A stretch of 64,000 bases of DNA from Candidatus Anderseniibacteriota bacterium. GTDB lineage: Bacteria; Patescibacteriota; Andersenbacteria; UBA10190. The notes under the pieces are model-generated. The model ran no database searches. It had not been told where the DNA came from and saw only the letters and a program-made list of their open reading frames with translations. Shown here in pieces: positions 44,571 to 64,000 of this stretch. The first letter of the stretch is position 1. Each line of letters opens with the position of its first letter. The DNA lies in the NCBI GenBank assembly GCA_035288905.1, contig DATDYZ010000001.1, forward strand, positions 19,172-83,171. Reading direction: 5' to 3'. The position numbers and the translations under genes were made by a program.

Positions 44571-44572
44571 CT

Positions 44573-44865: not shown

Positions 44866-44870
44866 TTTGT

Positions 44871-44893
44871 ATTCCAACACCTGGTGTTGGAAT
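44871..44893. repeat. REP-D variant TTCCAACACCTGGTGTTGGAA
   Basis: Hairpin. Confidence 0.75.
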
Positions 44894-44935
44894 GAGGATT
44901 TGTTTCGTTTGAATAAAATCTGATACTATTTACTT

Positions 44936-48965: not shown

Positions 48966-49253
48966 ATGAACAAGAAACAAACTGAAAAAGGAGAGTTTGT
49001 TCAGGATCAGTCAGGTCTTTGGCACTACACTCCCACGGATCATGTATCGGCATACATCACACGTTGGATTGTAGACGCCCTCGCTAATATGCCCGATGGA
49101 CCAGCATGGTTTTGGTTTAATAATCTGCCAGCTCCAATTGTTCCAAACGATACCCCAGAAACACTGGAGAGGCGTTGGTATAAGGTCAATAATCCGTATA
49201 AAGATCAAGTACCATTTTTGAAAAGCCTCTTGGAGTTTATAAGTGAGGCATGA
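48966..49253 (+). CDS. Hypothetical small protein
   Basis: ORF of 95 aa with its own promoter and a leader of about 110 nt. I recognise no family. Confidence 0.4.
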   Translation: MNKKQTEKGEFVQDQSGLWHYTPTDHVSAYITRWIVDALANMPDGPAWFWFNNLPAPIVPNDTPETLERRWYKVNNPYKDQVPFLKSLLEFISEA

Positions 49254-49283
49254 CAATATGTATGCTACGGTCAGAAACACGCA

Positions 49284-49320
49284 GCCCCTCGACGCAATCG
49301 CGACGAGGGGTTTTTATTTT
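49284..49320 (+). terminator. Rho-independent terminator (CCCCTCG...CGAGGGG followed by a T-run)
   Basis: Seen directly. Confidence 0.55.
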
Positions 49321-49335
49321 TCTGACCCGACGCTC

Positions 49336-49365
49336 TTGACAGATAGTATTCTTACACTGTATATT
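49336..49365 (+). promoter_or_regulatory. Sigma70-like promoter TTGACA-18-TATATT
   Basis: Seen directly. Confidence 0.5.
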
Positions 49366-49437
49366 GCGCATCAGGAAAAGGACAGCATCGTAGCTATTCT
49401 TTTTTGTTTCGTTGACAACTTGTGCGAGGTCTCAAAG

Positions 49438-50253
49438 ATGTCAAATATTCAATATGATTTTACTGGCAAGGTAGCAATCGTAACCGGCGGAGCGTCTGGT
49501 ATTGGCAAGGCTACAGTGAAGATGTTTGCCGAAGCCGGCGCGAATGTTGTGCTGGTGGATGTTAATAAGGGTCGTGGTGAAACAGTAGCGGAGGAGCTCG
49601 GTGAGAGAGTTTGTTTTGTCTTTGCAGACGTAGCAAGAACCCGGCATGCCGAAGAGGTGGCGCAAAGGGCGATGCTTGCCTTCGGGAAGATTGATATTCT
49701 CGTGAACAATGCGGGTATCGAGTACAACGACCGAGGAAATCTTGTCACGATGCCACACGATGACATGATGCGCATTATCCAAGTGAACCTCTTCGGATAT
49801 ATCCATATGGTTCGCGCGTGCCTGCCTCATATGAATTTCGGCGGGCGTGTGGTGAACGTGAGTTCCCTGCAAGGTCTTGCAGCGGCTCTTCCAGGTACAA
49901 GTTATCAGTCTACCAAGGCAGCTATTCTTGGGATGACGAGGGCTCTGGCTATCGAATATGCGCTTGAGGGGATAACCTTCAACAGTGTTTGTCCTGGTGC
50001 TATATGTACTGAAGGAATGGGTGCGGCGCGGGCAGGAGGATCGGCATCGCTTGACCCAACTCGCAGGCGTATTCCTATGGGGCGCAGAGGGTGGCCACAT
50101 GAGGTTGCTGCGTTGATCGCCTTCTTGGCTTCAGATGCAGCTAGTTATATGACCGGTGGCGATTATGTCGTGGACGGTGGGTTGCTTATAAGCCTCAGTG
50201 CAGACGACCCGTCCAAGCCAACGCCAAATGTTTCAAACGATCCGGATCGGTAA
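49438..50253 (+). CDS. Short-chain dehydrogenase/reductase (SDR)
   Basis: TGGASGIGKA, NNAGI and S...Y...K catalytic residues. Trimmed from track ORF 49243. GC is visibly higher than in neighbouring genes. Confidence 0.85.
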   Translation: MSNIQYDFTGKVAIVTGGASGIGKATVKMFAEAGANVVLVDVNKGRGETVAEELGERVCFVFADVARTRHAEEVAQRAMLAFGKIDILVNNAGIEYNDRGNLVTMPHDDMMRIIQVNLFGYIHMVRACLPHMNFGGRVVNVSSLQGLAAALPGTSYQSTKAAILGMTRALAIEYALEGITFNSVCPGAICTEGMGAARAGGSASLDPTRRRIPMGRRGWPHEVAALIAFLASDAASYMTGGDYVVDGGLLISLSADDPSKPTPNVSNDPDR

Positions 50254-50321
50254 GCACAGTAACAAGGTGCTCTCAAAGGGCTCATTGCGGAATTCAATTC
50301 TGCGTGGGCCCTCTTTTTTAT

Positions 50322-50351
50322 TTGACAAAGTTGGCTGTATATGTATATAAT
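50322..50351 (+). promoter_or_regulatory. Sigma70 consensus promoter TTGACA-18-TATAAT, followed by a structured leader of about 128 nt
   Basis: Seen directly. Confidence 0.55.
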
Positions 50352-50479
50352 GCGAAATCGTTTGAGACCAGTGTTTTGCCTTATATATGGTGTTTTATAG
50401 GCAAAACAGTGTTCTCAAGGTGAGACCACTATGTCCCGAAACGGACATGAACGGATCTTTGACAAACAGGATAACGTAC

Positions 50480-51385
50480 ATGAAGCTCAGAAATACGGAA
50501 TTTGCGGATGTGATAGCCAGGTTTATATCAGTCCGAACAGGACTATTGGAGGACTGGGAAAAGTTCGCTGGAATCCAGGGATCAAAACAGCAGCGCGAAG
50601 GCGCAAGCACTGTATTGAAAGCAGACCTGTGGGCCGAGCAGCGGTTGGTTCCCGTTCTTCGTTACTTGTGGCCAGGTGTGCCTTTTCTCTGCGAAGAGGC
50701 AGGAAATTCCGGTCTCGCAACGCTCGTCCCAGGCATTGAACTGCTTTCGTGGGATGATGATGTCACCAACCTGCCCGACAATTTCGTCAGTGTTGATGGA
50801 GTTGACGGATCGGCACTCTATGCCAATCAGTGCTTTGAGCTCGTTGCGATGATGGCCGGTCTTGTTAAGGACGGTCGTCCAAGCGCTGGTATTGTCACGA
50901 TGCTTGATGATGGAGCAATGTATCACACTGGTGTCAACGGGCAGCCAGGTGTATTTAAGGGAGATAAGCCCCATGAAGAATGGCTTGTCCCGGTACGTCC
51001 GCTCAACAAGTGCTTGATCTGCGTCGATGACTGTGGAAGTGTGGATGAGGACTTCCGCAAACTCGTGACAAACATGTTGACGGGAACGAAAGATTTTGCG
51101 TATCCGATGAATACCCCGTCGGGCGCCGGCCCAATCAATGTGCTCAGAGGAAGAGCAGCTGCCTATGTCTCGAGTAACGCTCGAAACTGGGACCAGGTTG
51201 CAACTGCAGCTCTTTTGGGGGCGGCTGGCATGATTGTTCGGTGTTTGGACGGATCTGAAGTACCCTGGAAGCAGACTCGAATGCCGGCAGTGGTATTCGC
51301 TCGGGACGAGGAAACTTTCTGCTATATTCAGAAGCAGGCCAAGGAGTACCTCGAACTGCAGAAAAAGAAGCAGTCTGCCGCGTAA
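50480..51385 (+). CDS. Inositol monophosphatase-family phosphatase (IMPase/CysQ/FBPase superfamily), higher-GC paralog
   Basis: LCEEAG, SVDGVDGS (DPIDGT-like) and NWDQVATAALLGAAG (the WD.AAG motif). Start chosen by alignment with the paralog at 53159. Confidence 0.72.
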   Translation: MKLRNTEFADVIARFISVRTGLLEDWEKFAGIQGSKQQREGASTVLKADLWAEQRLVPVLRYLWPGVPFLCEEAGNSGLATLVPGIELLSWDDDVTNLPDNFVSVDGVDGSALYANQCFELVAMMAGLVKDGRPSAGIVTMLDDGAMYHTGVNGQPGVFKGDKPHEEWLVPVRPLNKCLICVDDCGSVDEDFRKLVTNMLTGTKDFAYPMNTPSGAGPINVLRGRAAAYVSSNARNWDQVATAALLGAAGMIVRCLDGSEVPWKQTRMPAVVFARDEETFCYIQKQAKEYLELQKKKQSAA

Positions 51386-51412
51386 GTAAAAGCGCTTTAT
51401 GCGCCAACAACA

Positions 51413-51447
51413 AGCCGATTAGATTCACCTCTAATCGGCTTTTTTCT
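51413..51447 (+). terminator. Rho-independent terminator AGCCGATTAG...CTAATCGGCT followed by TTTTTT
   Basis: Seen directly. Confidence 0.6.
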
Positions 51448-51453
51448 TGCCCT

Positions 51454-51483
51454 TGACAAGTATAGTGTTTTAGATATACAATG
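51454..51483 (+). promoter_or_regulatory. Sigma70-like promoter TTGACA-16/18-TATACAAT, followed by a structured leader of about 125 nt
   Basis: Seen directly. Confidence 0.5.
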
Positions 51484-51610
51484 CATAGTTCTTTTAAGGG
51501 TCATGAGGGTGGCGTTTTGTCTCGTATTTCGGGCTAAAACGGTGCTCTCACGGTGAGAATACCAGATTTCAGAAATATGATCGTTCGTTACAAATTGATG
51601 GAGTACAGTT

Positions 51611-52309
51611 ATGCGCAAGGTGATTTCTTTGAGTGACATGAATGTTTTGGGAAAAGGCGGTTGGCTCAGCCTTTACAAGCTGAGTCCAGAACAGACGGGA
51701 TTGAAGTTCAATTCTGAAATCGCCGCGAGAAATAACCAGAAGTATGGCGCAGCAAAATGTCTGCGCCTGGTTACAAACCAGTCGCTAGAGAGGCGGGAAG
51801 ATACGGATATTCAGAGCCTCTGTGCAACGCTTCGGGAAATTGGATTGGCAAACATCGCGGTTCAATTCTTGGCTGCGATCCGACCATTCACATTTTTTGA
51901 CGGACCGGGGTTGGAGCGGCTGGAGGTGAACTACCAAATCGAGTTGCCCGGTGGAATCATTGAACCCGATGAAGACGCTCGGCTGGGTGCTTTGCGGGAA
52001 GCCATGGAAGAAGGCGGAAAAGCGAAGACCATTCAGTGTGCGTCTCTTATGGTGTATAGCTCTCCGTTTGATGCGGGAAGCCATGTTGAGATGTACTCCA
52101 TTGAAACAGCGCTTGTGTATGCGGAAACACTTGCGCCACCGGCTCGAGAAGGTGTCATTCCCGAAAAGTGCGCGCTCGTTCCTTTGCTTGAAGTGCAGCA
52201 ATGGCTTCTTGGAAAAGAATGTCAGGGTATCCCGATTGAGGGATACGCCAAGACTGCGCTTGCTTTGCTCGGACTGGAACTCCACGGAGGATGGAGAGCT
52301 TTGAGCTAA
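51611..52309 (+). CDS. Nudix hydrolase
   Basis: The Nudix box GIIEPDEDARLGALREAMEEGG matches Gx5Ex7REUxEExGU. Confidence 0.78.
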   Translation: MRKVISLSDMNVLGKGGWLSLYKLSPEQTGLKFNSEIAARNNQKYGAAKCLRLVTNQSLERREDTDIQSLCATLREIGLANIAVQFLAAIRPFTFFDGPGLERLEVNYQIELPGGIIEPDEDARLGALREAMEEGGKAKTIQCASLMVYSSPFDAGSHVEMYSIETALVYAETLAPPAREGVIPEKCALVPLLEVQQWLLGKECQGIPIEGYAKTALALLGLELHGGWRALS

Positions 52310-52343
52310 CGAGACATTCTCGTTCGTTCACATCTTTCACAAT

Positions 52344-52377
52344 AGGCGACAGATTCAAACCCTGTCGCCTTTTTTTA
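52344..52377 (+). terminator. Rho-independent terminator AGGCGACAG...CTGTCGCCT followed by TTTTTTT
   Basis: Seen directly. Confidence 0.6.
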
Positions 52378-52407
52378 TTGACAAAATAGATGACATCTTG
52401 TTAATAT
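52378..52407 (+). promoter_or_regulatory. Sigma70-like promoter TTGACA-17-TTAATA, abutting the terminator
   Basis: Seen directly. Confidence 0.5.
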
Positions 52408-52454
52408 GCTAAGTTGGTCTTTGCCAATTTACGTTACTTGATTTAGGGCTCTTT

Positions 52455-53063
52455 TTGAGAGAAAATGAAAGCATGATTACAAAACTCATGGTGTTAGACC
52501 GCGACGGATTGCTCAACGTAGACGTTGGGTATACCTACAAAGTGGAAGATTTGAAACTTGCCCCAGGCGTTATTGAAGGCCTTACGCTTCTCAAGAGTCT
52601 TGGGTTTCGGTTTGCCATTGCAACCGGCCAGTCTGGAATTGGGAAGGGTAAGTACACCGAAGCAGACATGGACGCGTTCAATATCGCATTGCTTGCCGAG
52701 CTTGCAAAAAGCGACATTCAGGTCGACGCCGTTGCATTTTGCCCACACGACAAGGGCGAAGGGTGCAAGTGCAGGAAGCCGGGAGTTGGTATGCTTGAGC
52801 AAATTGAAGCAAAGCTTGGTCCGATCGACTGGTCAAAAGCATGGGGAAGTGGCGACAAGCCTGCAGACTCAAAGATGATTCTCGCGATGGGAGGTTCTGC
52901 GGTTCTGGTAGAAAGCGGACCACACAATAACTCGGCTGGGAAAGCGTACTGGGATGAAGAACCAGAACTTCTGAAAGAAGTCATGGGAAACCCAAGAAAC
53001 TTCGTGGCGCACGATCTTGGCGCAGCTGCGTTGGTTATTCAACAGCAGTTGGCAGCATCGTAA
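52455..53063 (+). CDS. HAD-IIIA phosphatase, GmhB-like (D,D-heptose 1,7-bisphosphate phosphatase family), second copy
   Basis: VLDRDGLLN and the zinc motif CPHDKGEGCKCRKP. Confidence 0.78.
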   Translation: MRENESMITKLMVLDRDGLLNVDVGYTYKVEDLKLAPGVIEGLTLLKSLGFRFAIATGQSGIGKGKYTEADMDAFNIALLAELAKSDIQVDAVAFCPHDKGEGCKCRKPGVGMLEQIEAKLGPIDWSKAWGSGDKPADSKMILAMGGSAVLVESGPHNNSAGKAYWDEEPELLKEVMGNPRNFVAHDLGAAALVIQQQLAAS

Positions 53064-53086
53064 TTCCAACACCAGTTGTTGGAAAA
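53061..53086. repeat. Degenerate REP-D-like palindrome TTCCAACACCAGTTGTTGGAA
   Basis: Hairpin. Confidence 0.55.
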
Positions 53087-53158
53087 TGAAGAACAGTACG
53101 ACCGTTTGGGATTTCCCAGGCGGTCGATTTTATATTTAAATGACTATATACTAAACGT

Positions 53159-54028
53159 ATGGAATTACAGAAAATAACAACATTATTTCAGACAACGGGA
53201 CAATTATTAATTGACGATTGGGGAAGACTTACAGGTATAGTTAGTGAAAAAGAAATACTTGAAGGATCAAGTTCCGTTTTACATGCAGATTGGATTGCAG
53301 AAAAGGCATATGTGCCTCTTGCAACAAAGTTGTGGCCTAACGTGCCAGTTTTGTGCGAAGAAGCTGGAACATCCGGAGTCGCAGATTTAATTTCAGGAGT
53401 TTCTTTGCTTCCACATGAAGATAATGTTATTGATTTGCCGTCAGACTTCATTAGTGCAGATGGAGTGGACGGTTCGGCGCTGTATGCAAATGGTATGTTT
53501 ACGTTAGTTTCTATGATGGCAGGGCTTATAAAAGACGGAAAACCTCACGCTGGGGTACTGATGGTGCTTGGTGAGAAGAAGCTGTATCACACAGGGATTG
53601 ATGGAAAGCCAGGTGTGTTTTATGGAGATCTCTCATATAATGAGTGGCGTTTGCCTGCTCGTCCTCTGAAACAGTCTTTGATAGGAACGGACGACAATAA
53701 GTCTGTTGATGCCAATTTTCGCAATCTTGTGATTAATAAATTAATGGGCAGTTCTGGTTTTAGATATCCTCTCAATATGCCCTCAGGCGCAGGGGCTCTC
53801 GCAGTTTTAAAGGGTAATCTTGCGGTATACGTAACGAGTAATGCGCGAAACTGGGACTTGGCTACCACGTCAGCACTTTGCATGGCTGCTGGTCAGGTTG
53901 TTCGTTGTTTGGACGGTTCCGAAGTGCCCTGGAATGTAGTGCGAATGCCGCCTGTCGTATTTGCTCGCGACGAAGAAACATTTTTATACGTGCACACATT
54001 AGCAAAAAACTGGCTTAACACTGTATAA
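53159..54028 (+). CDS. Inositol monophosphatase-family phosphatase, native-GC paralog of 50480..51385
   Basis: About half the residues are identical to the upstream paralog, with the same motifs (LCEEAG, SADGVDGS, NWDLATTSALCMAAG). Confidence 0.72.
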   Translation: MELQKITTLFQTTGQLLIDDWGRLTGIVSEKEILEGSSSVLHADWIAEKAYVPLATKLWPNVPVLCEEAGTSGVADLISGVSLLPHEDNVIDLPSDFISADGVDGSALYANGMFTLVSMMAGLIKDGKPHAGVLMVLGEKKLYHTGIDGKPGVFYGDLSYNEWRLPARPLKQSLIGTDDNKSVDANFRNLVINKLMGSSGFRYPLNMPSGAGALAVLKGNLAVYVTSNARNWDLATTSALCMAAGQVVRCLDGSEVPWNVVRMPPVVFARDEETFLYVHTLAKNWLNTV

Positions 54029-54048
54029 GGTCCTAGAATAGATGGTAC

Positions 54049-54077
54049 TTGACAATAGTACAATATAGGTATATAAT
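54049..54077 (+). promoter_or_regulatory. Sigma70 consensus promoter TTGACA-17-TATAAT
   Basis: Seen directly. Confidence 0.55.
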
Positions 54078-54137
54078 GAACCAAGTGCTGATTTTTGGCT
54101 GTTTTTTGGCAATTTCCCTCTGAAGGAGGAAAGAGTA

Positions 54138-54770
54138 ATGACAAATCGAATTACCGATCATGTGTTTGACGCTCGAAGGGTGATGAAGTGCGTACCTGGA
54201 CTTGTCCGAACGCAATACACCGAAGCTGATGTTTGTAAGCTGCTTTCAGACGAAACGCTTGCGAGGTTGCTTCCGTCGGTTCGACAGCAGCCGGAAGTGT
54301 TGCCGCCTATTCATGTGATTCGATGCGGTAAGGAGCCAGCGATGCCTGGGGGCATCATAATTGGGGCTTCGTGGAAGATTGAACAACACCTACATTGTGA
54401 GGATTTGACATGGAGCGCTGACTCTGTGCGATTGGAAGAATTTCCTGAAAAAAAGATGATCAGGGATGATCGTCCTTGGGTTTTTCTACCATTGCCTAAA
54501 AAACCATTTGCGAACGCCAATGTTGCAAATTACCTTTTACGGCACACTCACCTGATTCCGGATTCATGGAAGATGAAAAATGACGGTGAACCTGTGGAGA
54601 TTCTGTTTCTCGGAACTCTTTTTGGGAAACATTCGGCAGCTCAACATGATGAGATGTCTACTACCTTCCACGTTCAGACGTTGTACTTTTCGCGTCGAAA
54701 GTGGAGAAGGGGGTTGATGAATTTGACTTCCTGGCGATGCGGGGCAAGTCGCGTTGCCGTCCTCACATAA
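54138..54770 (+). CDS. Hypothetical protein (210 aa) preceded by a strong GGAGGA ribosome-binding site
   Basis: ORF with a Shine-Dalgarno sequence. I recognise no family. Confidence 0.5.
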   Translation: MTNRITDHVFDARRVMKCVPGLVRTQYTEADVCKLLSDETLARLLPSVRQQPEVLPPIHVIRCGKEPAMPGGIIIGASWKIEQHLHCEDLTWSADSVRLEEFPEKKMIRDDRPWVFLPLPKKPFANANVANYLLRHTHLIPDSWKMKNDGEPVEILFLGTLFGKHSAAQHDEMSTTFHVQTLYFSRRKWRRGLMNLTSWRCGASRVAVLT

Positions 54771-54846: not shown

Positions 54847-54932
54847 TGCAAAATAACCCCGCACTGCGCCCCGCGAAGCTTTAGCGTAGTGGGGTGTTCC
54901 CTTTTGAGTCCGAACACCTATATAATCAATAT

Positions 54933-55757
54933 ATGAACCTCGTAATTGTCGGCGCGAAGGGAATGTTGGGAAGTATGCTTTCTACCGTATTTTCGGAATA
55001 TAAGCCGTTGCTTGTTGATAGGGATGAAATAGATATTACTAATATAGATAGTGTGCGCAGTGTGCTTCGAGAAGCAAATGCTACGCTTATTATAAACGCA
55101 GCAGCATATACAAATGTTGACGATGCAGAAACTCATACAGAAGATGCTTTTTTGGTAAATGAAACCGGGGTAAAAAATCTTGCGGAAGTTGCAAAAGAAC
55201 TTTCTGCAACGCTCGTTCACTTTAGTACGGATTACGTGTTCCCTGGTACAAATTCGGATGGCTACTTGGAAACAGATTCTCCAGGCCCTGCAGTAAATCA
55301 ATATGGCAATTCTAAACTTGCGGGCGAACGTGCACTGAAAGAAAGTGGATGTAATTTTTATTTAATTCGTACGGCGTGGTTGTACGGGTCAAATGGCAAA
55401 AACTTTGTTGATACTATGTTGAAACTAGCCGAAACAAAGAAAAACTTACAAGTGGTTGAAGATCAAGTTGGATGCCCGACGTATACGAAAGACGTTGCAA
55501 TGTATGTGAAAGTGTTACTTGATGAAAAATATCCGTTTGGAATTTACCATGCCGTAAATAGCGGGAAGGCGTCGTGGTTTGCATTTGCACAAAAGATTTT
55601 TGAATACAAAGATAACTTGCCCGTGGTAGTGAAGCCAGTTTCTTCGTCGCAGTTTCCTCGCCCTGCAAAACGCCCGGCGTATAGTATTTTGAAAAACACC
55701 AAAGGGCCAGGTATAAGAGCGTGGCAAGAAGCACTACGAGAATACTTGACGAAATAA
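54933..55757 (+). CDS. rfbD: dTDP-4-dehydrorhamnose reductase
   Basis: RmlD-like: N-terminal GAKGMLG Rossmann motif and Y...K. Trimmed from track ORF 54894. Confidence 0.85.
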   Translation: MNLVIVGAKGMLGSMLSTVFSEYKPLLVDRDEIDITNIDSVRSVLREANATLIINAAAYTNVDDAETHTEDAFLVNETGVKNLAEVAKELSATLVHFSTDYVFPGTNSDGYLETDSPGPAVNQYGNSKLAGERALKESGCNFYLIRTAWLYGSNGKNFVDTMLKLAETKKNLQVVEDQVGCPTYTKDVAMYVKVLLDEKYPFGIYHAVNSGKASWFAFAQKIFEYKDNLPVVVKPVSSSQFPRPAKRPAYSILKNTKGPGIRAWQEALREYLTK

Positions 55758-55840: not shown

Positions 55841-56542
55841 ATGAGCCGAAAAATTAGGGGCATCGTGTTTGATTTGGAAGGAACAATCGTTTCAGTGGAA
55901 GAGTGCCATACGGGCGGGTTCTCAGCTGCTGCGCTTTCGTATGGCATTGAGATTACTCCCCAGGAACTTCTCGAAATACCAGGGTACGTCGGCGCGGGCG
56001 ACAAGAGGGCCATTGATATGATCCTCGAGAAATTCCGCCGAGCAGACGTTGACGCTGAGGAGTTTCGCATTCGAAAGATGGAGCGCTACAACGAGCTGCT
56101 GAACGTGGCAGACATTGCATTGCGACCAGGGTTCGCCGACTTCTGTTGCCAAGCGAGCAGGCATTGGCTTCAAATTGCTATTGCGTCATTGACCCCAAGA
56201 GTTCAGGCTAACCCTTTGATTAAGAGGATTGGGCTTGAGCAACTTGTTCCAATCGAAAGGATTGTCCTTCGTGAGGACGTCACAAATGTGAAGCCAAATC
56301 CGGAAGTATTTTTGGAGGCAGCAGCACGGATCAACGTTCATCCGCGGAGCGTACTTGTGTTCGGGGATTCGGTGCATGACATGACGGCAGCAGTTGCGGC
56401 CGGTTCCGTTCCTATCGGAATGCCGTGCAATTTCAGAGATCCATTCATCGGAGACTTACTGAAAGCCGGCGCCGTAGATGTTTTTAAAGATTGGCGAAGC
56501 ATCAGATTAGAGGGATTGCTCAAAATTGTTCAGGGTTTGTAA
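55841..56542 (+). CDS. HAD-IA family hydrolase (beta-phosphoglucomutase/phosphatase-like)
   Basis: Motif I VFDLEGTIV and motif IV FGDSVHDMTAA. Higher GC. Confidence 0.75.
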   Translation: MSRKIRGIVFDLEGTIVSVEECHTGGFSAAALSYGIEITPQELLEIPGYVGAGDKRAIDMILEKFRRADVDAEEFRIRKMERYNELLNVADIALRPGFADFCCQASRHWLQIAIASLTPRVQANPLIKRIGLEQLVPIERIVLREDVTNVKPNPEVFLEAAARINVHPRSVLVFGDSVHDMTAAVAAGSVPIGMPCNFRDPFIGDLLKAGAVDVFKDWRSIRLEGLLKIVQGL

Positions 56543-56644: not shown

Positions 56645-57214
56645 ATGAAATATGAAAAATTATTTAAAGATCATACTCAAGAATTGCGAGAAACCATTGA
56701 TCGGTTGGATCAATACTACGAACAAGTTATAGAGGTTGCGAAGCAATTTAAAAAGGCATTTGATAGCGGAAATAAAATCTTAATTGCCGGTAATGGCGGA
56801 TCTGGCGCACAGGCGCTGCATTTATCAGATGAAATGGTGGGGCGGTATAGAAATGATAGGCAGGCGTATCCTGCAATATCGCTTACCGCAGATGGAGCGG
56901 TAATTACTTGTATTGGGAACGATTTTGGATACGACAATGTGTTCGGGAGGCAAGTCGCTGCCTTTGGACAACCAGGCGATATTTTTGTTGGCCTCACGAC
57001 TTCCGGAGCATCGGAAAATATTTTAAAAGCAGCAGCAGTCGCACGAGAGAGAGGAATGCTGATTATCGGATTTATGGGTGAAGGTGGAGTGTTTCAGGAG
57101 TTGTGTGATTTTGTGTTACAGGCGCCATCAAAGAAAAGCGCTGTTGTACAGGAAATGCATTTACACGCGATTCACTTGCTGTGTGAATTATTTGAAGAGC
57201 CAATATCAATTTAA
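56645..57214 (+). CDS. gmhA: Phosphoheptose isomerase (SIS domain)
   Basis: GNGGSGAQALHLSDE and TTSG. Trimmed from track ORF 56588. Confidence 0.85.
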   Translation: MKYEKLFKDHTQELRETIDRLDQYYEQVIEVAKQFKKAFDSGNKILIAGNGGSGAQALHLSDEMVGRYRNDRQAYPAISLTADGAVITCIGNDFGYDNVFGRQVAAFGQPGDIFVGLTTSGASENILKAAAVARERGMLIIGFMGEGGVFQELCDFVLQAPSKKSAVVQEMHLHAIHLLCELFEEPISI

Positions 57215-57224
57215 CAACTATTCT

Positions 57225-58217
57225 ATGAAACATATTTCACTAAAACGAGCGAAAGAAATTACCTCAAAGTTTAGCAGTCAAAAAGTTTTGGTCATTGGAG
57301 ATGCAATGATTGATCACTATGTGCTAGGGGTGGTACAGCGGGTGAACCCCGAAGCCCCTGTATCTCTGTTGAATGTGAAAGAAAAACGTGACATGAGCGG
57401 AGGTGCGGGTAATGCAGCGAAAAACGTTGCAACACTTGGTGCTGCCACTACCCTCCTTACGATTACCGGAGATGACCCGGCAGCATTTCGACTGAAGGAA
57501 ATTGCAGAAGCGGAACTGTATAAAGTGTACCCAATTCGAGATGGTTCTCGTCCAACTATTCAAAAGAGTAGGTATATGGCAAATCACCAACAACTGTTGC
57601 GGGTAGACGAAGAGGAAAAGCACCCGGTATCTCCTGAAATTGAAAAGCAAATAATAGCAGATATGGAGAAGTTGCAAGAAGGAATAACTGCGATTGTTGT
57701 TTCTGATTACGACAAGGGATTTATTACGCCCAATGTTGCTTCTGCTATTATTGCTATTGCTCATGATCGTTCTCTGCCGATTATTGCTGACTTGAAGGCG
57801 AATCACGTTCCGTTGTTTAAAGGAGTTACGGCTATTACTCCAAATCGAAAAGAAGCACATGAATTTCTTTCGCTTAATTGGCCAGATGAAAAAAAGCCAC
57901 CTGAATATTTAGCACAAGAACTTTCAAAGATGATGAAAAGCGATGTATTTGTAACGCTCGGAGATGAAGGTATTTACCTGCGGGATCGTGAAGGAGAAGA
58001 GTTCCATATTAATCCCGCGCGAAAAATTGAAGTGTTTGATGTGTCTGGGGCTGGCGATACGGTAGTTGCAACGTTAGCGTTATCGTATGCTTCGGGCGCT
58101 ACTGCATTTGAGGCTGGGGAATTAGCAAATGCAGCAGGTGCTGTTGTGGTAGGCAAGGTTGGAAGCGTTGCTCCTACTGTGGAAGAGATTTTAGAAATGG
58201 TTGAGTCTGAGGAATAG
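57225..58217 (+). CDS. hldA: D-glycero-beta-D-manno-heptose-7-phosphate kinase (stand-alone HldE kinase domain, PfkB family)
   Basis: VLVIGDAMIDHY, GGAGN and the C-terminal GAGDTVVA. Trimmed from track ORF 57078. Confidence 0.83.
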   Translation: MKHISLKRAKEITSKFSSQKVLVIGDAMIDHYVLGVVQRVNPEAPVSLLNVKEKRDMSGGAGNAAKNVATLGAATTLLTITGDDPAAFRLKEIAEAELYKVYPIRDGSRPTIQKSRYMANHQQLLRVDEEEKHPVSPEIEKQIIADMEKLQEGITAIVVSDYDKGFITPNVASAIIAIAHDRSLPIIADLKANHVPLFKGVTAITPNRKEAHEFLSLNWPDEKKPPEYLAQELSKMMKSDVFVTLGDEGIYLRDREGEEFHINPARKIEVFDVSGAGDTVVATLALSYASGATAFEAGELANAAGAVVVGKVGSVAPTVEEILEMVESEE

Positions 58218-58788
58218 TCCTTCTCGTATGCTTAAGCGCGTCATCTTTTTAGATCGCGATGGAACGCTGAACGTTGACCATGGATATGTGCACTCACGCG
58301 AACAGTGGGAGTGGGTGCCTGGTGCACTGGATGCATGTAAACAACTCCAAGATGCAGGGTATACGCTTGCAGTGATAACGAATCAATCCGGCATTGCCCA
58401 TGGCTTATATACAGAAGAAGCGATGCATGAGTTGCATCGATATATGAGATTGGAATTGGATCAGTATGGCGTGCATCTTGCGATGATTGCATTTTGTCCG
58501 CATGCTAGAAGCCAGACAGATTGCGATTGCAGAAAACCTCATATAGGGATGGCAAAACAAATTGAGGCAAAAATTGGTGAAATTGACTATGCAAATAGTT
58601 GGACAGTAGGTGATAAAGAAGCTGATTTGTTATTTGGCAAAACTGCAGGAACAAAAACGGCATTGATACGAAGTAAGTATTGGGAAGAAGGCAAACTAAC
58701 GGTACAACCTGATATGGTTGTTGATTCTCTGGAACAGGCGGCAGTTAGTATCACCTCTTCCCAATTGGGGAGAGGTCGCTCTGTATGA
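58201..58788 (+). CDS. gmhB: D,D-heptose 1,7-bisphosphate phosphatase
   Basis: IFLDRDGTLN and CPHARSQTDCDCRKP. The start could instead be the internal ATG at 58228. The C-terminal roughly 10 aa run into repeat B. Confidence 0.83.
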   Translation: MSLRNSPSRMLKRVIFLDRDGTLNVDHGYVHSREQWEWVPGALDACKQLQDAGYTLAVITNQSGIAHGLYTEEAMHELHRYMRLELDQYGVHLAMIAFCPHARSQTDCDCRKPHIGMAKQIEAKIGEIDYANSWTVGDKEADLLFGKTAGTKTALIRSKYWEEGKLTVQPDMVVDSLEQAAVSITSSQLGRGRSV

Positions 58789-58850
58789 GCGAAGCGAATT
58801 AAAGAGCGGGAGAGGGCAACCCAAAGCGCAACGACAGCCCTCCAGCCTTC
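58754..58850. repeat. Family B composite repeat (CCTCTTCCCAATTGGGGAGAGG ... GGGAGAGGGCAAC..CAACGACAGCCCTCC)
   Basis: Seen directly. Confidence 0.7.
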
Positions 58851-58980
58851 GCTGAAGCTATGGCCGGCAAAGCACCCTTTTACCCCACTGCGTCCCGCGT
58901 AGCTCGCAAGCGAAGTGGGATATGGGTAGAGGGGAACTATGCACTTCCCTATATTTTATTTTTTATATACTATTATATCT

Positions 58981-59493
58981 ATGGAACTTCCACATCATTG
59001 GAGAAAAGAGAAAATTTTAACCCTGGAAGAAGCAGCAAAAAAGTCTGCGGAACTTCGAGCACAAGGAAAGACAATCGTAAGCCATAACGGGTCTTATGAC
59101 CTACTTCACGGCGGGCATTTAGACATGCTTGAAGAAGCAAAGCAACAGGGCGATATTCTTATTGTTGGAATAAACACGGACGTTTCTATCCGTGATGCAA
59201 AGGGCCCTACTCGTCCTATTATTGGTGTAGAAAATCGTGCGGCTATGCTTGCTGCACTTATTTGCGTCGATTATGTAACAGTGATGGATGGGGCGTACAA
59301 CGAGGAGCCACAAGGTTCGTTTATACCTGCTATTAAGCCGCACATTCATGTGAATGGTGAAGAATACGGGCCAGAAGAAAAGTGGATTGAATACGGTGCA
59401 ATGCAAGCATGTGGAGCGAAGGGATACTCGGTAGGACGCAGACCAAACCTTTCAACCTCAGACATCATCAAGAAGATTCAATCGGAAGTATGA
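58981..59493 (+). CDS. hldC: D-beta-D-heptose-1-phosphate adenylyltransferase (stand-alone HldE C-terminal domain)
   Basis: Cytidylyltransferase motif SHNGSYDLLHGGH. Trimmed from track ORF 58939. Confidence 0.83.
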   Translation: MELPHHWRKEKILTLEEAAKKSAELRAQGKTIVSHNGSYDLLHGGHLDMLEEAKQQGDILIVGINTDVSIRDAKGPTRPIIGVENRAAMLAALICVDYVTVMDGAYNEEPQGSFIPAIKPHIHVNGEEYGPEEKWIEYGAMQACGAKGYSVGRRPNLSTSDIIKKIQSEV

Positions 59494-60551
59494 TTGTCGT
59501 AACTGGCGCAGCAGGGTTCATTGGAAGTGCTACGGTGTGGGCACTTAATCAAAAAGGCCGAGAAGATATTATTATTGTGGATGAGATAATTGATAACCCG
59601 ATTCTCCCACCCCCTCCAGCTCCCCCTCGGGCAGGGGGAGAGAACGCGGCGGACGCTTCGCCGAGTAGCGACTCGGCTCGCGAAAAGGAACACAATATCG
59701 GGCATTTGAAGTATGATCAAATGATGGGTATTGCCGATTTTCGAAAGCAATTACTATCAGGAGAACTGGATAGCTTAGGTATAGAAGCAATTATTCATTT
59801 GGGTGCATGCAGCGCAACTACAGAAACAAATTGGGACTATTTGCTGGATAACAACGTGGAGTATACCAAAGATATGATCCGCTGGTGCCAAACGAATAAC
59901 GCTCGGTGCGTGTATGCATCCAGTGCGGCAACATATGGTGATGGAGAGGTAGGGTATGACGATAATCACGACCTATTTGACTCGCTGGTACCGATGAACC
60001 TCTACGGCAAATCAAAGCTGTTAGTTGATATATGGGCGCGAGATGGCGGCTATTTAGATGGGGCAGTTGGTCTTCGATACTTTAACGTATTTGGTCCGAA
60101 TGAATGGCATAAAGGCTCTATGATGAGCGTAGTTGCAAAAAAGTACCCTGAAATTGCCTCTGGCAAACCCATTACGTTGTTTAAGTCGTATGAAAAGGAC
60201 TATGGTGATGGTGAACAAAAACGAGACTTCGTGTATGTAAAAGATGCAGTGAGAGCCACTCTCTTTTTTATGGATAACATGCAACATAATGGAGTGTATA
60301 ACGTGGGTATGGGAATTGCCCGTTCCTGGCTTGATGTTGCCCGCGCCATGTTTGCAGCATCTAGTATTCCAGAAAAGGTAGAGTTTATCGAGATGCCAGA
60401 TAATCTCAAAAACCAATATCAATACTTTACGCAGGCAAATATTAAAAAGTTAGAAGCAACAGGATTTGATATGAGTCAAAATTATTCTTTAGAGAAAGCA
60501 GTGACAGAATATATCCAAGAACATTTAGCTCCTCATAAACACTTAGTATGA
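59490..60551 (+). CDS. hldD: ADP-L-glycero-D-manno-heptose 6-epimerase, carrying an in-frame Family B repeat insertion
   Basis: [22 protein letters not shown] and the YxxxK catalytic pattern. The ATGA start overlaps the hldC stop. Trimmed from track ORF 59409. The extra segment [29 protein letters not shown] lies in the first variable loop. Confidence 0.88.
59603..59688. repeat. Family B-variant repeat inside the hldD CDS
   Basis: CCCCCTCCAGCTCCCCCTCGGGCAGGGGGAGAG plus the CGAGTAGCGACTCG palindrome. Confidence 0.7.
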
Positions 60552-61423
60552 AAGGTATTATTTTAGCTGGTGGATCAGGGACAAGATTGTATCCATTAAC
60601 ACGAGCGGTGAGTAAACAATTGCTTCCAGTATACGATAAGCCAATGGTGTATTATCCGCTTTCTACACTGATGCTTTCAGGCATTACGGAGATTTTATTT
60701 ATTTCAACCCCGAAAGATTTGCCTATTTTTGAATCGTTGTTTGGTGATGGATCTAATTTGGGGATGAAATTTAGCTACAAAGTGCAAGAAAAACCAAATG
60801 GTTTACCAGAAGCATTTATATTGGGCGAGGATTTTATCGGGGACGATAGTGTTGCGATGATGCTTGGCGATAATATTTTATATGGAAGTGGGCTCTCGGG
60901 TATTTTAAAGGATGCAAAAGAAAAAGTTGAAACAGACGGCGGGCACATGCTGTTTGGGTATCATGTACCTGATCCAGAGCGTTCTGGAGTGATAGAGTTT
61001 GATGCTGCTGAAACCGTTGTTTCTATTGAAGAAAAACCAAAGAATCCGAAATCGCCTTATGCAATTTTAGGGTTATACTTTTTCGATAACAAGGTTGTTG
61101 AAGTAGCAAAGGGGCTTACGCCGTCTGCCCGTGGAGAACTAGAAATGGTCGATTTGCATAATCACTATTTAGCTGCAGGCAATTTATACGCTACAAAATT
61201 ACCTCGAGGGGTAGCCTGGCTAGATGCGGGGTTGCACTCTTCACTATTGCAGGCGGGTAATTTTGTTCAGATTGTTGAACAGCGCCAAGGATTAAAAATA
61301 GGGTGCATTGAAGAAGTCGCATACCGAATGGGGTATATTACGGCGCAGCAGCTTACTGAAATAGCGCAGGGGTTACTAAAAAGTGGATATGGACAGTATT
61401 TGTTGGATGTCGCTAATGAATAG
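60548..61423 (+). CDS. rfbA: Glucose-1-phosphate thymidylyltransferase
   Basis: [17 protein letters not shown]. Confidence 0.92.
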
Positions 61424-61588: not shown

Positions 61589-62554
61589 ATGGATTACTCA
61601 ATAGTAGTACCCGCTCGTAACGAAGAAGGATCTATTAACGCGTTGTATGAGGCTACAAAGCGTATTTTTGATGCAATGGGAGGTACTTGGGAATTGATTG
61701 TTGTAGATGATGGTAGTACTGATTCTACGTATCAAATTCTTTCCGATATTTGTGACAAGGATGCAAATGTAAAAATAGTTCGGCTTCGCAGAAGTTTTGG
61801 CCAAACCGCAGGATGGTCTGCTGGGTTTTCTGCTGCATCAGGAGATATTGTGATTGTGATGGATGCTGATTTACAAAACGACCCGGAAGACATTCCCGCA
61901 ATGATTAAAAAACTCAAGGATGAAAATTACGATGTTATTTCCGGCTGGAGAAAAGATAGAAAAGATGCCAGTATGTTAAAGGTTGGAAGCAAAATTGGAA
62001 ACTGGGTACGGAGAAAAGTTACGGGAGAAAAAATTCATGATCAAGGGTGCAGCTTAAAAGTATATCGTAAGGAAGCGCTGGAGGATTTAGAACTCTACGG
62101 AGAAATGCATCGCTATATTACCGCGTTGTTAACGTGGAAAGGCTTTAGGGTTGGAGAAATGGTTGTGCGCCATCATGCACGTGCACACGGAAAAACAAAC
62201 TATACTATCCGAAAAAAGTTGAAAGGCTTTTTAGATCTGCTTATTGTAAAGTTTTGGATTCAGTACTCTGCACGGCCGATGCATCTCTTTGGTGCAATTG
62301 GAGTAATTTTTATTGGTGCAGGTTTTTTGCTTGGGAGCACGTTGGGCACTCTGTGGCTGTTTCGCCTTATTTCACTTGCGGGTAGATCAACACCGTTGCT
62401 CGCAGTACTGCTCGTACTCTTAGGGTTTCAGTTTTTACTAGCTGGAGTGCTCGCAGATATAGTTGCGCATACGTATTACGCACAAAAAAAGCCCTACTCT
62501 ATTAAAGAAACAAAAGGGTTTCAGTCTTCGACGGGTTCGACAAGCTCACCGTAA
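61589..62554 (+). CDS. GT2 polyprenyl-phosphate glycosyltransferase (ArnC/GtrB/DPM1-like) with C-terminal TM helices
   Basis: SIVVPARNEE, VVDDGSTDST and a DAD motif. Two C-terminal TM segments. Confidence 0.85.
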   Translation: MDYSIVVPARNEEGSINALYEATKRIFDAMGGTWELIVVDDGSTDSTYQILSDICDKDANVKIVRLRRSFGQTAGWSAGFSAASGDIVIVMDADLQNDPEDIPAMIKKLKDENYDVISGWRKDRKDASMLKVGSKIGNWVRRKVTGEKIHDQGCSLKVYRKEALEDLELYGEMHRYITALLTWKGFRVGEMVVRHHARAHGKTNYTIRKKLKGFLDLLIVKFWIQYSARPMHLFGAIGVIFIGAGFLLGSTLGTLWLFRLISLAGRSTPLLAVLLVLLGFQFLLAGVLADIVAHTYYAQKKPYSIKETKGFQSSTGSTSSP

Positions 62555-62574: not shown

Positions 62575-63723
62575 ATGAATTTATTGCTGATAAATAACGA
62601 ATTTCCTCCTATTGGCGGAGGCGGCTCTACGGTTACAAAATATGCAATCCGCTATCTTGTTCAAATGGGACATACCGTAACCCTTATTACGTCTAGGTAC
62701 GGTAATTTGCCTCATCGAGAAGTTATTGATGGTGCTGCGGTAATTCGTATCCCTGCACTTCGAAGATATAAAGATTATAGTTCTGTGTTTGAGCTTGTGA
62801 TTTTTGGTATATCTGCACTTCTGTATTCTTTTTTCTTTACCCTCAAGTATAAAACTGATTTTACATTTGCTTTTTTTGCCGTGCCCGCAGGTTGGGTAGC
62901 GTGGATACTTTCGTATGTACGAGGTATTCCGTATGGAGTGTATTTTGGAGGGTCGGATATTCCAGGCGCAAACCCGTCTCGTTTTCGTCAGATATATCCG
63001 TTTATTACACCTCTTTTAAAAACGATTTGGAAGCGTGCGTCGTTTCGGTCAGTATGTTCAAAAGATTTACAAGATATTGCACGCCGTCTTGATCCGGCAT
63101 CCGAGTTTCACTATATTCCTAATGGCGTAGAGACAGATAGATTTATGCCAATAGACCGACCAGAAAACCCTAAAGTAAAAATAGTTTTTATTGGTAGGCT
63201 TATTCCACGCAAGGGATTTCATCGAGTGGTACGCGCGCTTCCTAAAGTTCTTACGCTAACACATGTCCCTTTTGAAATTGAAGTGGTGGGTACGGGTGCT
63301 CATCGTGCAGAGTTGGACGACCTTGCAGAGCAATTAGGCGTAAGCCAATTTATTTCCTATATTGGCATGGTGCCATATGACCAATTAGAAAAGTCATACC
63401 AGTATGCAGATATATTTGTGCTGACGTCACTTTCTGAGGGTATGCCTTCTGTAATACTAGAGGCAATGGGTGCTGGGCTTCCTATTATTGCCAGCAATGT
63501 AGGGGGTAATAACGAAATTGTGAAAGAAGGCGAAAATGGATTCCTCATTATGGGTGACGATATTGATTTATTAGCAGATAAAATGGCAGTATTAATTAAC
63601 GACAGTGCTCTGCGCAAACAGATGGGAGCTAAAAGTCGGGAATATGCGATGCAGTACGATTGGAAACATATTATGAACAGGTATAATGAACTGATAATGC
63701 AATATGGCAAAAAACAGCAATAA
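62575..63723 (+). CDS. GT4 family glycosyltransferase
   Basis: EGMPSVILEAMGAGLPIIASNVGG. Confidence 0.85.
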   Translation: MNLLLINNEFPPIGGGGSTVTKYAIRYLVQMGHTVTLITSRYGNLPHREVIDGAAVIRIPALRRYKDYSSVFELVIFGISALLYSFFFTLKYKTDFTFAFFAVPAGWVAWILSYVRGIPYGVYFGGSDIPGANPSRFRQIYPFITPLLKTIWKRASFRSVCSKDLQDIARRLDPASEFHYIPNGVETDRFMPIDRPENPKVKIVFIGRLIPRKGFHRVVRALPKVLTLTHVPFEIEVVGTGAHRAELDDLAEQLGVSQFISYIGMVPYDQLEKSYQYADIFVLTSLSEGMPSVILEAMGAGLPIIASNVGGNNEIVKEGENGFLIMGDDIDLLADKMAVLINDSALRKQMGAKSREYAMQYDWKHIMNRYNELIMQYGKKQQ

Positions 63724-63735
63724 AAGCGTAGACGT

Positions 63736-63848
63736 TCCCTTCTCCCCAATTGGGGAGAAGGTGCCTCGCCAGAGCGGGCGGATGAGGGCAGGACACAACG
63801 CTACAACAGCCCTCACCCCAACCCTCTCCCCCCATGGGGAGAGGGGGT
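63736..63848. repeat. Family B composite repeat
   Basis: CCCTTCTCCCCAATTGGGGAGAAGG ... ACAACAGCCCTCACCCC ... CCCTCTCCCCCCATGGGGAGAGGGGG. Confidence 0.75.
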
Positions 63849-63862
63849 CTCGTGATTACTTT

Positions 63863-64000
63863 ACCGGCAAAAAAGTATTAATCACCGGCGGTGCTGGATT
63901 TTTGGGTAGTTCTCTTGCGCAAGTTCTTGTTCTGCTGGGCGCAGAAATTACGATACTAGATGCCATGTTGCCATTGTACGGCGGAAATTTGTTCAACCTA
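63863..64000 (+). CDS. N-terminus of an NAD-dependent epimerase/dehydratase (possibly dTDP-glucose 4,6-dehydratase or UDP-sugar epimerase), partial
   Basis: TGKKVLITGGAGFLGS Rossmann motif. The start codon is unclear because the ORF emerges from the repeat, and the gene runs off the window. Confidence 0.45.

Follow-up and report, generated by a model that had tools for sequence, protein, structure and literature searches.

A probable ADP-heptose operon with separate kinase and nucleotidyltransferase genes in a dTDP-rhamnose cluster of Andersenbacteria

ADP-heptose is best known as a building block of lipopolysaccharide (LPS), and it is also an innate-immune agonist. In Escherichia coli it is the product of HldE, in which kinase and adenylyltransferase are fused, and HldD, and it enters the LPS inner core via the GT9 enzymes WaaC and WaaF. 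In the known split-gene version of the pathway, the kinase and the nucleotidyltransferase are separate proteins. CPR bacteria are generally considered to have no outer membrane. Polyprenyl-phosphate sugar synthases of the GtrB/ArnC/PgfS type work with GT-C transferases in glycosylation outside the membrane, and we know of none that uses ADP-heptose. Monodomain heptose nucleotidyltransferases are a recognized enzyme type across kingdoms (Tang et al., summarized in PMC11573728). The ADP-heptose pathway was inferred in a 2022 paper from genomes of another CPR class in the same superphylum; that paper does not mention Andersenbacteria, and its accessible part has no description of a locus, no detail on split genes, and no proposed transferases.

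Here we describe five heptose genes in a 64-kb stretch of DNA (the window). It is quite probable that they are an intact unit for ADP-heptose synthesis, likely one operon, whose product most likely goes to a glycan of the cell surface that contains rhamnose and heptose. The unit has the same five enzyme families, the same division of kinase from nucleotidyltransferase, and the same checked motifs as the known split-gene system, and HldC is, like the monodomain enzymes, a stand-alone protein of ∼170 residues (PMC11573728). It differs from the split-gene system in its CPR host, in having no LPS genes in view and no GT9 gene nearby, and in its arrangement, in which the five genes adjoin one another in the order of the pathway within a dTDP-rhamnose/GT2/GT4 cluster; in addition, three of the enzymes score below curated cut-offs, and HldD and GmhB carry extra residues derived from repeats. 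The pathway is predicted to end in the same product as that of E. coli HldE and HldD, but kinase and adenylyltransferase are unfused here, and we saw no genes for GT9, Kdo, or lipid A. Among named homologues, the closest come from Candidatus Andersenbacteria/Anderseniibacteriota. The genes for ribosomal proteins S5 (positions 9468-9920) and L15 (9932-10387) are separated by 11 nt, and the L30 gene, looked for between them, is missing. By these sequence features the genome is that of a CPR bacterium, as a preliminary description of this DNA had suggested.

Table 1. Features of the window discussed in the text. Cut-off, NCBI curated equivalog cut-off in bits.
Feature	Position	Strand	Description	Match or remark
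Bac_transf	30845		polyprenyl glycosylphosphotransferase	
further GT4s	32273, 33972, 35090			
cyclodipeptide synthase gene	36323-36961			
MurJ-like flippase	40758			
ALG3/PIG-M-like	42368		GT-C-like membrane protein	
rmlC	48267-48809	+	dTDP-4-dehydrorhamnose 3,5-epimerase	TIGR01221, 240 bits (cut-off 156)
IMPase/CysQ-like paralogue 1	50387-51385	+	phosphatase	PF00459, E 3e-16; weak CysQ match
NUDIX	51611-52309	+	hydrolase	PF00293, E 6e-6; faint NudE (ADP-compounds hydrolase) match, E 2e-4
GmhB2	52473-53063	+	second GmhB-like HAD-IIIA phosphatase	NF006506, 134 bits (cut-off 178)
IMPase/CysQ-like paralogue 2	53159-54028	+	phosphatase	PF00459, E 6e-12
rmlD	54894-55757	+	dTDP-4-dehydrorhamnose reductase	TIGR01214, 305 bits (cut-off 224)
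HAD-IA	55841-56542	+	hydrolase, beta-phosphoglucomutase-like	TIGR02009, 83 bits, below cut-off
gmhA	56645-57214	+	sedoheptulose-7-phosphate isomerase, SIS fold	TIGR00441, 185 bits, E 9e-55 (cut-off 209)
hldA	57225-58217	+	pfkB-type heptose-7-phosphate kinase	TIGR02198, 311 bits, E 8e-93, profile positions 3-314 of 315 (cut-off 345)
gmhB	58228-58788	+	heptose 1,7-bisphosphate 7-phosphatase	NF006506 (beta-specific model), 180.5 bits (cut-off 178)
gmhB-hldC spacer	58789-58980	.		contains repeat copies
hldC	58981-59493	+	stand-alone heptose-1-phosphate nucleotidyltransferase, presumably adenylyltransferase	TIGR02199, 125 bits, E 2e-36 (cut-off 181.5)
hldD	59490-60551	+	ADP-heptose 6-epimerase	TIGR02197, 341 bits, E 6e-102 (cut-off 274.6)
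in-frame hldD insertion	59595-59702	+	residues 36-71, ∼28 more than E. coli	palindromic repeat sequence
rmlA	60548-61423	+	glucose-1-phosphate thymidylyltransferase	TIGR01207, 425 bits (cut-off 361)
GT2	61589-62554	+	polyprenyl-phosphate sugar synthase-like (ArnC/PgfS/AglJ-like)	NF007986, 169 bits; NF047588, 144 bits
GT4	62575-63723	+	glycosyltransferase	PF00534, 138 bits

The ORF positions and family models bear out the earlier claim that gmhA, hldA, gmhB, hldC, and hldD are adjacent and co-oriented; all five are on the plus strand and full-length (Table 1). Gaps of 10 nt separate gmhA from hldA and hldA from gmhB, and there are 4-nt overlaps between hldC and hldD and between hldD and rmlA. 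The sole larger spacer within the unit is a repeat-filled gap of 192 nt between gmhB and hldC. For each of the five proteins the best NCBIfam match was by far a heptose family (E values from 1e-36 to 1e-102), and all the alignments spanned essentially the whole profile; thus, none of the genes is truncated. GmhB and HldD scored above their equivalog cut-offs. GmhA, HldA, and HldC scored below theirs and are therefore divergent members of their families, for which the exact substrate specificity is not guaranteed. The five genes probably constitute an intact unit and a single operon.

Four of the five proteins have an enzyme of the heptose pathway as their best solved homologue. GmhA matched the phosphoheptose isomerase 2xbl (147 bits), with which its metal-binding and catalytic His/Glu (HLSDE) and Gln/Glu/His (QEMHLHAIH) residues align and are conserved. 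HldA matched the D-beta-D-heptose 7-phosphate kinase 4e84 (157 bits) and has the GAGD motif, as DVSGAGDT; by Pfam it is a pfkB kinase (PF00294), not a GHMP kinase. GmhB matched the D,D-heptose 1,7-bisphosphate phosphatase 3l8e (113 bits), to which its DxDGT motif (DRDGT) and its Cys/His zinc loop (CPH...CDC) align. HldD aligned along its length with 1eq2 (190 bits); the SDR Ser/Tyr/Lys residues and a second catalytic Lys are conserved, and the HKGSM motif is kept. HldC matched 5x9q (76 bits), which was deposited as a putative cytidylyltransferase and which we take to be Burkholderia pseudomallei HldC; its HxGH motif is present as LHGGH. Together with the family models, these structures and motifs confirm the split of kinase and adenylyltransferase that had been proposed. 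The dN/dS values (0.035 to 0.066 across hldC and hldD, 0.05 to 0.07 for hldD) indicate strong purifying selection on these two genes. In the pathway that we infer from sequence, the stand-alone kinase HldA would phosphorylate C1 in the beta configuration, GmhB would remove the 7-phosphate, and the stand-alone nucleotidyltransferase HldC would add AMP, with ATP as the predicted nucleotide donor.

The genes for dTDP-rhamnose synthesis flank the unit as the preliminary description had it, with rmlD (rfbD) upstream, rmlA (rfbA) downstream, and rmlC (rfbC) at a greater distance, and the GT2 and GT4 genes and second GmhB-like phosphatase that it mentioned were also recovered. In all relatives rmlC is directly 3′ of lepA. 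Six other Andersenbacteria loci (L004, L007, L021, L022, L024, and L026, the last of which ends within rmlA) share the order rmlC-rmlD-gmhA/cupin-hldA-gmhB-hldC-hldD-rmlA-GT2-GT4. In a further locus, L023, hldD-rmlA-GT2-GT4 are still together and the other heptose genes are elsewhere. In two relatives a mannose-6-phosphate-isomerase-like cupin takes the place of gmhA. In each of the seven related loci that reach this point, GT2 comes after rmlA; GT4 is always behind GT2 and is 71 to 89% identical in more distant relatives. Both GT2 matches in Table 1 are full-length, and the protein has a hydrophobic C-terminal part. Thus far it resembles ArnC and PgfS, and GT-C-like proteins are nearby (the ALG3-like protein here and a faint YfhO-like match in L004), but its scores are far below the equivalog cut-offs.

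Paralogue 1 of the IMPase-like genes belongs to a block of ∼6 kb between rmlC and rmlD, and the repeat family D5 connects it with paralogue 2. The GmhB2 ORF has a TTG start at 52455. GmhB2 is 38 to 40% identical to the operon GmhB, and its family is small (27 proteins, the few named ones being from Patescibacteria). In L024 and L026 it and an IMPase-like gene form a pair that lies between rmlC and rmlD, and paralogue 2 is 49% identical to the gene adjoining GmhB2 in L024. Among the compared loci the HAD-IA hydrolase is present only here and in L024.

Palindromic repeats occur in frame inside hldD, lepA, and gmhB; these, like the cupin that takes the place of gmhA in two relatives, may be of greater interest than the pathway itself. 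Nucleotides 59608-59642 of the hldD insertion share 91% identity with a copy between genes at 13122-13156. The last 13 residues of GmhB are encoded by a repeat copy; this C-terminal tail, SITSSQLGRGRSV, overlaps the copy at 58749-58777 and is not present in relatives. The gmhB-hldC spacer has the copies D6 (58799-58847) and I13 (58841-58870). This junction is variable: it is 24 to 87 nt in L021, L004, and L024, has an extra ORF in L022, and is ∼2.3 kb in L007.

The cluster could be a decaying relic, with hldD inactivated by the repeat insertion, as the preliminary description had allowed, or with gmhB broken. The loop after strand beta2 is 28 residues longer than in E. coli HldD and is close to the cofactor-binding region, and on two closely related contigs the gmhB call is a fragment of 79 residues. 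However, the short gmhB calls are due to a run of N in scaffold L002 and to a contig end in L003. The HldD insertion is in frame, and in an AlphaFold2 model with a mean pLDDT of 91.1 it is a disordered loop (pLDDT <50 for residues 36-55) in an otherwise confident fold. The catalytic motifs are retained, HldD orthologues 70 to 79% identical have an insertion at the same site (it is variable there in P0001, P0002, P0003, P0007, and P0016), and hldD has a dN/dS of ∼0.06 versus a relative with the same insertion. Sequence and model thus indicate that HldD is not inactivated, and decay is very improbable. We give almost no credence to the GDP-D-glycero-alpha-D-manno-heptose route of S-layer and capsule glycans. 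That route is found in organisms without LPS, and Aneurinibacillus uses it in S-layer glycan biosynthesis. But the kinase here is of the pfkB/HldA type, not the GHMP/HddA type, and domain scans of the window ORFs found no GHMP kinase (HddA). In addition, GmhB fits the beta-specific model better (180.5 versus 112.5 bits), the sole protein with the NTP_transferase fold is RmlA (425 bits versus 38 bits to HddC), and an ADP-heptose epimerase is present. On these family assignments the route was rejected, and with it the refuting possibility, raised earlier, that kinase or adenylyltransferase might have another sugar specificity, such as that of this route. It is also unlikely, less strongly so, that the pathway is real but that HldC makes mainly CDP- or UDP-heptose. 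HldC is below the adenylyltransferase cut-off, its best solved homologue carries the cytidylyltransferase label, and some heptose nucleotidyltransferases accept CTP and UTP (PMC11573728). In that commentary, which does not mention CPR members, such promiscuous enzymes are marked by the STTR5 motif, (F/L)xxGRSTT with Arg at the fifth position. The motif is absent from HldC of the window and of three relatives, all of which read RRPNLST(S/T) at this place; in the C terminus found here, RRPNLSTS, it is Leu that aligns with the Arg of FEHDRSTT in 5x9q. Moreover, hldC overlaps the gene for HldD, whose score above the ADP-heptose epimerase cut-off argues for an ADP-linked product.

If ADP-heptose is made, its most likely destination, judging from synteny, is a cell-surface glycan containing rhamnose and heptose, because dTDP-rhamnose genes lie on both sides of the heptose genes, GT2 and GT4 are constant downstream, and the region has glycan-assembly genes. 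The heptose- and rhamnose-containing surface glycan or S-layer glycosylation proposed previously is thus plausible. Among the larger ORFs between 11.7 and 63.7 kb of the window, Pfam scans found no Lpx, Kds, Waa, or GT9 domain, in agreement with the earlier statement that LPS genes are not visible. Neither GT9 (PF01075) nor another known ADP-heptose-using transferase was found in the scanned window ORFs or, for the relatives, in the precomputed Pfam lists of genes up to 10 kb away. Consequently, the heptosyltransferase would be either a local non-GT9 enzyme, GT4 being a candidate for heptose or rhamnose transfer, or encoded elsewhere. The absence of a recognized heptosyltransferase from the cluster would also fit a use in direct protein heptosylation, in a small-molecule natural product, or as a released metabolite; ADP-heptose is a known precursor in protein glycosylation and for natural products, septacidin among them (PMC11573728), and the window has a cyclodipeptide synthase gene. 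We consider such a use fairly unlikely, given the tight linkage to the dTDP-rhamnose genes, GT2, and GT4 that is conserved over seven loci; in addition, neither an autotransporter-type heptosyltransferase nor a natural-product cluster was seen adjoining the operon. Returning to the surface glycan, it is a tentative possibility, more doubtful than probable, that Andersenbacteria build an L,D-heptose/rhamnose surface polymer or glycoprotein with heptosyltransferases outside GT9. In one version, ADP-heptose would be the direct donor for the conserved neighboring GT4; in the other, the ArnC/PgfS-like GT2 would form polyprenyl-phosphate-heptose, which a GT-C enzyme would then take as its donor. We know of no GT2 or GT4 enzyme with demonstrated use of ADP-heptose, and either version, if true, would add a new kind of transferase that acts on this sugar nucleotide.

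The novelty is modest: homologues are already named in NCBI records, and the 2022 paper reports the pathway in another CPR class. The enzymes are conventional, and the value of the locus is mainly as a well-defined start for biochemistry rather than as a surprise. What it provides is a gene-by-gene record of an apparently complete ADP-heptose pathway in a CPR lineage for which no LPS genes are visible. The pathway is under strong purifying selection, and its genes are physically linked to those for rhamnose synthesis and for two conserved glycosyltransferases. The locus offers specific candidates for heptosyltransferases outside GT9 and for a use of ADP-heptose other than in LPS, and CPR bacteria join the possible environmental producers of ADP-heptose.

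Each of the five proteins encoded by gmhA through hldD had a heptose family as its top NCBIfam match, with nearly the whole profile covered, E values of 1e-36 to 1e-102, and no rival family. Because GmhA, HldA, and HldC scored below the curated cutoffs, these three of the five are divergent members. For four proteins the best solved homologue was the corresponding heptose enzyme. GmhA matched the phosphoheptose isomerase 2xbl (147 bits; His/Glu and Gln/Glu/His positions kept), HldA the D-beta-D-heptose 7-phosphate kinase 4e84 (157 bits; GAGD motif present), GmhB the D,D-heptose 1,7-bisphosphate phosphatase 3l8e (113 bits; DRDGT and CPH...CxC loop present), and HldD the ADP-L-glycero-D-mannoheptose 6-epimerase 1eq2 (190 bits; HKGSM present). 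HldC, in which LHGGH is present, matched 5x9q (76 bits), deposited as a putative cytidylyltransferase, which we take to be Burkholderia pseudomallei HldC. The family matches and solved homologues bear out the preliminary description of a five-gene ADP-heptose cluster with separate kinase and nucleotidyltransferase genes. The genes of the cluster are separated by 10-nt gaps or overlap by 4 nt, except for a 192-nt gmhB-hldC spacer that contains repeat copies. There were no Rfam matches at 46 to 64 kb. Promoter counts were at the level of shuffled sequence, and terminator-like sites numbered 22 versus 9.4 in shuffles; operon boundaries could not be drawn from either.

Positions of the glycan and heptose genes and of selected repeats in the window
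Feature	Position	Strand	Match or associated feature
rmlD	54894-55757	+	
HAD-IA hydrolase	55841-56542	+	
gmhA	56645-57214	+	TIGR00441, 185 bits (curated cutoff 209)
hldA	57225-58217	+	TIGR02198, 311 bits (curated cutoff 345)
gmhB	58228-58788	+	NF006506, 180.5 bits (curated cutoff 178)
hldC	58981-59493	+	TIGR02199, 125 bits (curated cutoff 181.5)
hldD	59490-60551	+	TIGR02197, 341 bits (curated cutoff 274.6)
rmlA	60548-61423	+	
GT2	61589-62554	+	
GT4	62575-63723	+	
In-frame palindromic repeat in hldD	59595-59702		
In-frame palindromic repeat in lepA	46652-46720		Perfect hairpin 46685-46707
In-frame palindromic repeat, gmhB 3' end	58749-58777		
Palindromic repeat within 1,107-residue ORF	15425-15448		
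Y1 transposase gene 1	37036-37701		Palindromes 36982-37006 and 37707-37731
Y1 transposase gene 2	43834-44523		Palindromes 43809-43844 and 44491-44548

Another sugar specificity, such as the GDP-heptose route, had been named as a reading that would overturn the assignment. That route is excluded because the kinase is of the pfkB type, not the GHMP type, and because the sole enzyme with an NTP_transferase fold is unambiguously RmlA. A broader nucleotide choice was also considered. According to a commentary by the authors of a 2024 cross-kingdom study (PMC11573728), the STTR5 motif, (F/L)xxGRSTT, distinguishes those heptose nucleotidyltransferases that take CTP and UTP as well. The site reads RRPNLST(S/T) in the window HldC and three Andersenbacteria orthologues, with Leu at the Arg position. 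With the motif absent, CDP/UDP promiscuity was rejected on this measure, and the lack of the motif, together with the overlapping gene for an equivalog-grade ADP-heptose epimerase, favors ADP-heptose as the predicted HldC product.

The preliminary description also raised the possibility that hldD is inactivated by a repeat insertion. In the alignment, HldD residues 36 to 71 stand in for E. coli residues 36 to 43, and nt 59608 to 59642 share 91% identity with a palindrome lying between genes at 13122 to 13156. The AlphaFold2 model had a mean pLDDT of 91.1 and a pTM of 0.89; because pLDDT fell below 50 only at residues 36 to 55, the insertion is modeled as a disordered loop, running from strand beta2 to the conserved EKEHN helix. 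Insertions of varying length occur at the same site in four HldD relatives (P0002, P0003, P0007, and P0016; 70 to 79% identity; P0001, 98% identical, was the stand-in for the window HldD, for which there was no exact database match), and other relatives have independent insertions close by. For hldD, dN/dS was 0.060 in the comparison with a 98% identical relative that also carries this insertion, and 0.066 in that with the Andersenbacteria locus L024. Purifying selection acts on hldD, which is no pseudogene. The loop in an otherwise confident model, the insertions in orthologues, the kept motifs, and dN/dS all led us to reject inactivation. The L024 insertion shares the second hairpin with the window and lacks the first, which suggests two successive insertions.

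Across the window, G+C-rich palindromic repeats (e.g., CCCTCTCCCC..GGGGAGAGGG and CTCCCCCT..AGGGGGAG) are mostly intergenic. In-frame copies add Pro/Ala/Gly/Ser-rich loops or a new C terminus to proteins, and LepA relatives have variable insertions at the same LepA site. In Rickettsia, palindromic elements are found in frame within genes, and the window's in-frame repeats may be likened to these. There are also two genes for IS200-like Y1 transposases (PF01797; E about 2e-7), each lying between copies of its own palindrome family, an arrangement typical of REP-associated tyrosine transposases. At 44568 to 44896, the 3' end of one of these genes is partly duplicated together with its palindrome.

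Gene order is conserved as lepA-rmlC-(variable)-rmlD-(gmhA or cupin)-hldA-gmhB-hldC-hldD-rmlA in six Andersenbacteria loci (L004, L007, L021, L022, L024, and L026). GT2 and GT4 come next in five of the six, L026 stopping within rmlA, and an SDR follows GT4 in the related loci that reach that far. The more distant locus L023 has hldD-rmlA-GT2-GT4-SDR together, and the other heptose genes are absent from the 10 kb upstream.

Identity along the cluster is uneven. Between the window and L004 it was 94% for HldC, 92% for GT2, 89% for rmlA, and 78% for GmhB, and only 41% for HldA. Across L004, L007, L021, and L022, the ranges were 63 to 94% for HldC, 66 to 78% for GmhB, 82 to 92% for GT2, and 78 to 89% for GT4, with 40 to 45% for HldA and about 50% for GmhA. 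The window's gmhA-hldA type was shared with L024 alone among the compared loci (75 to 78%). Both HldA lineages match TIGR02198 (275 to 311 bits), and the window HldA belongs to a small subclade at 73 to 84% identity, beyond which identity drops to 45 to 56%. This mosaic and the HldA drop to about 50% indicate either exchange or rapid divergence at the gmhA-hldA end of the operon. We found no support for a recent transfer of this end out of a Gram-negative donor: the named HldA relatives at 45 to 56% are Andersenbacteria, and those from Fusobacteria, Omnitrophica, and Proteobacteria are lower, at about 39 to 43%.

In L004 (7499 to 7873) and L026 (11713 to 12087), a 124-residue cupin stands in gmhA's place. 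The cupins of the two loci share 94% identity, and their matches to Cupin_2, lyxose isomerase, and mannose-6-phosphate isomerase are weak. The cupin could be a nonorthologous replacement of the SIS-type heptose isomerase, which is conceivable given the analogy between that isomerase's reaction and fructose-6-P/mannose-6-P isomerization. Some Andersenbacteria encode a fused GmhA-HldA (P0187, 531 residues; P0178, P0188, and P0197), matching TIGR00441 at 180 bits and TIGR02198 at 290 bits; such a gene probably lies elsewhere on the 492,073-base contig of L023. This isomerase/kinase fusion is unlike the three nucleotidyltransferase-containing enzyme types of PMC11573728. Breakage of gmhB in close relatives, considered because of a 79-residue call, was rejected; the call reflects a run of N in L002 and the contig end in L003.

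The variable region between rmlC and rmlD is a block of about 6 kb in the window (49243 to 54770) that encodes an SDR, two IMPase/CysQ-like paralogues, a NUDIX protein, a second GmhB-like phosphatase (GmhB2; 52473 to 53063), and an unknown 210-residue ORF. Its G+C content is 0.50 versus about 0.44. The block is missing in L004, L021, and L022; L024 and L026 share just the adjoining GmhB2 and IMPase-like genes, likewise between rmlC and rmlD. GmhB2 is 38 to 40% identical to the operon's GmhB, and its family has only 27 proteins, the few named members being from Patescibacteria. Another CPR contig (L025, 10001 to 11903) has a phosphatase gene of the GmhB2 type (58% identical) and, about 700 nt away, an HldC-like gene that stands alone (TIGR02199, 111 bits), with no kinase, isomerase, or epimerase gene near the pair.

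GT2 has full-length matches to ArnC and PgfS, which are of the polyprenyl-phosphate sugar synthase type. Upstream in the window are genes for a polyprenyl glycosylphosphotransferase, three further GT4s, a DUF4012 protein, a MurJ-like flippase, and an ALG3/PIG-M-like membrane protein. The gene neighborhood favors a surface glycan as the predicted destination of both rhamnose and heptose. The SDR after GT4 (about 63704 to 64000, running off the window end; 5216 to 6343 in the related locus L001) has RmlB as its best match, but a score of only 182 bits against a cutoff of 365 leaves the identification of rmlB insecure. The called N terminus of the window SDR overlaps palindromic repeats at 63734 to 63846. 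Inside the glycan cluster, between GT4 and Y1 transposase genes, is a cyclodipeptide synthase homologue (36323 to 36961; PF16715, 101 bits). A 1,107-residue ORF (15197 to 18520) has no Pfam or NCBIfam match, internal repeats spaced 261 nt apart (17531 and 17792), and a 46-nt inverted repeat pair around its start (15126 to 15171 and 15425 to 15470); its product might be a surface protein and possibly a glycosylation target.

The genome had been described as CPR-like, with no LPS genes visible in the window, and the results are in line with both statements. Named HldD relatives are from Candidatus Andersenbacteria, and a 67% identical genome-collection locus is from Candidatus Anderseniibacteriota, which NCBI taxonomy lists under the Parcubacteria group, itself part of the Patescibacteria group. 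The S5 and L15 genes (9468 to 10387) are separated by an 11-nt gap with no L30 gene, a CPR hallmark and consistent with such a genome. No Lpx, Kds, Waa, or GT9 domains were found among the larger ORFs at 11.7 to 63.7 kb. The genome-collection scan returned two CPR loci and 13 others (Ignavibacteria, Bacteroidota, Omnitrophota, etc.; ≤47% identity), which has little bearing on distribution.

Stand-alone heptose nucleotidyltransferases are a recognized type (PMC11573728), and NCBI and JGI records already name homologues as ADP-glyceromanno-heptose 6-epimerase and heptose-7-phosphate kinase. Our literature search found nothing pairing ADP-heptose with the Candidate Phyla Radiation or heptose with Andersenbacteria; two papers came up for heptose with Parcubacteria. 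A 2022 paper reporting the pathway in another CPR class does not mention Andersenbacteria. The window cluster is a new, well-resolved case of a known pathway, previously noted in this lineage only in passing.
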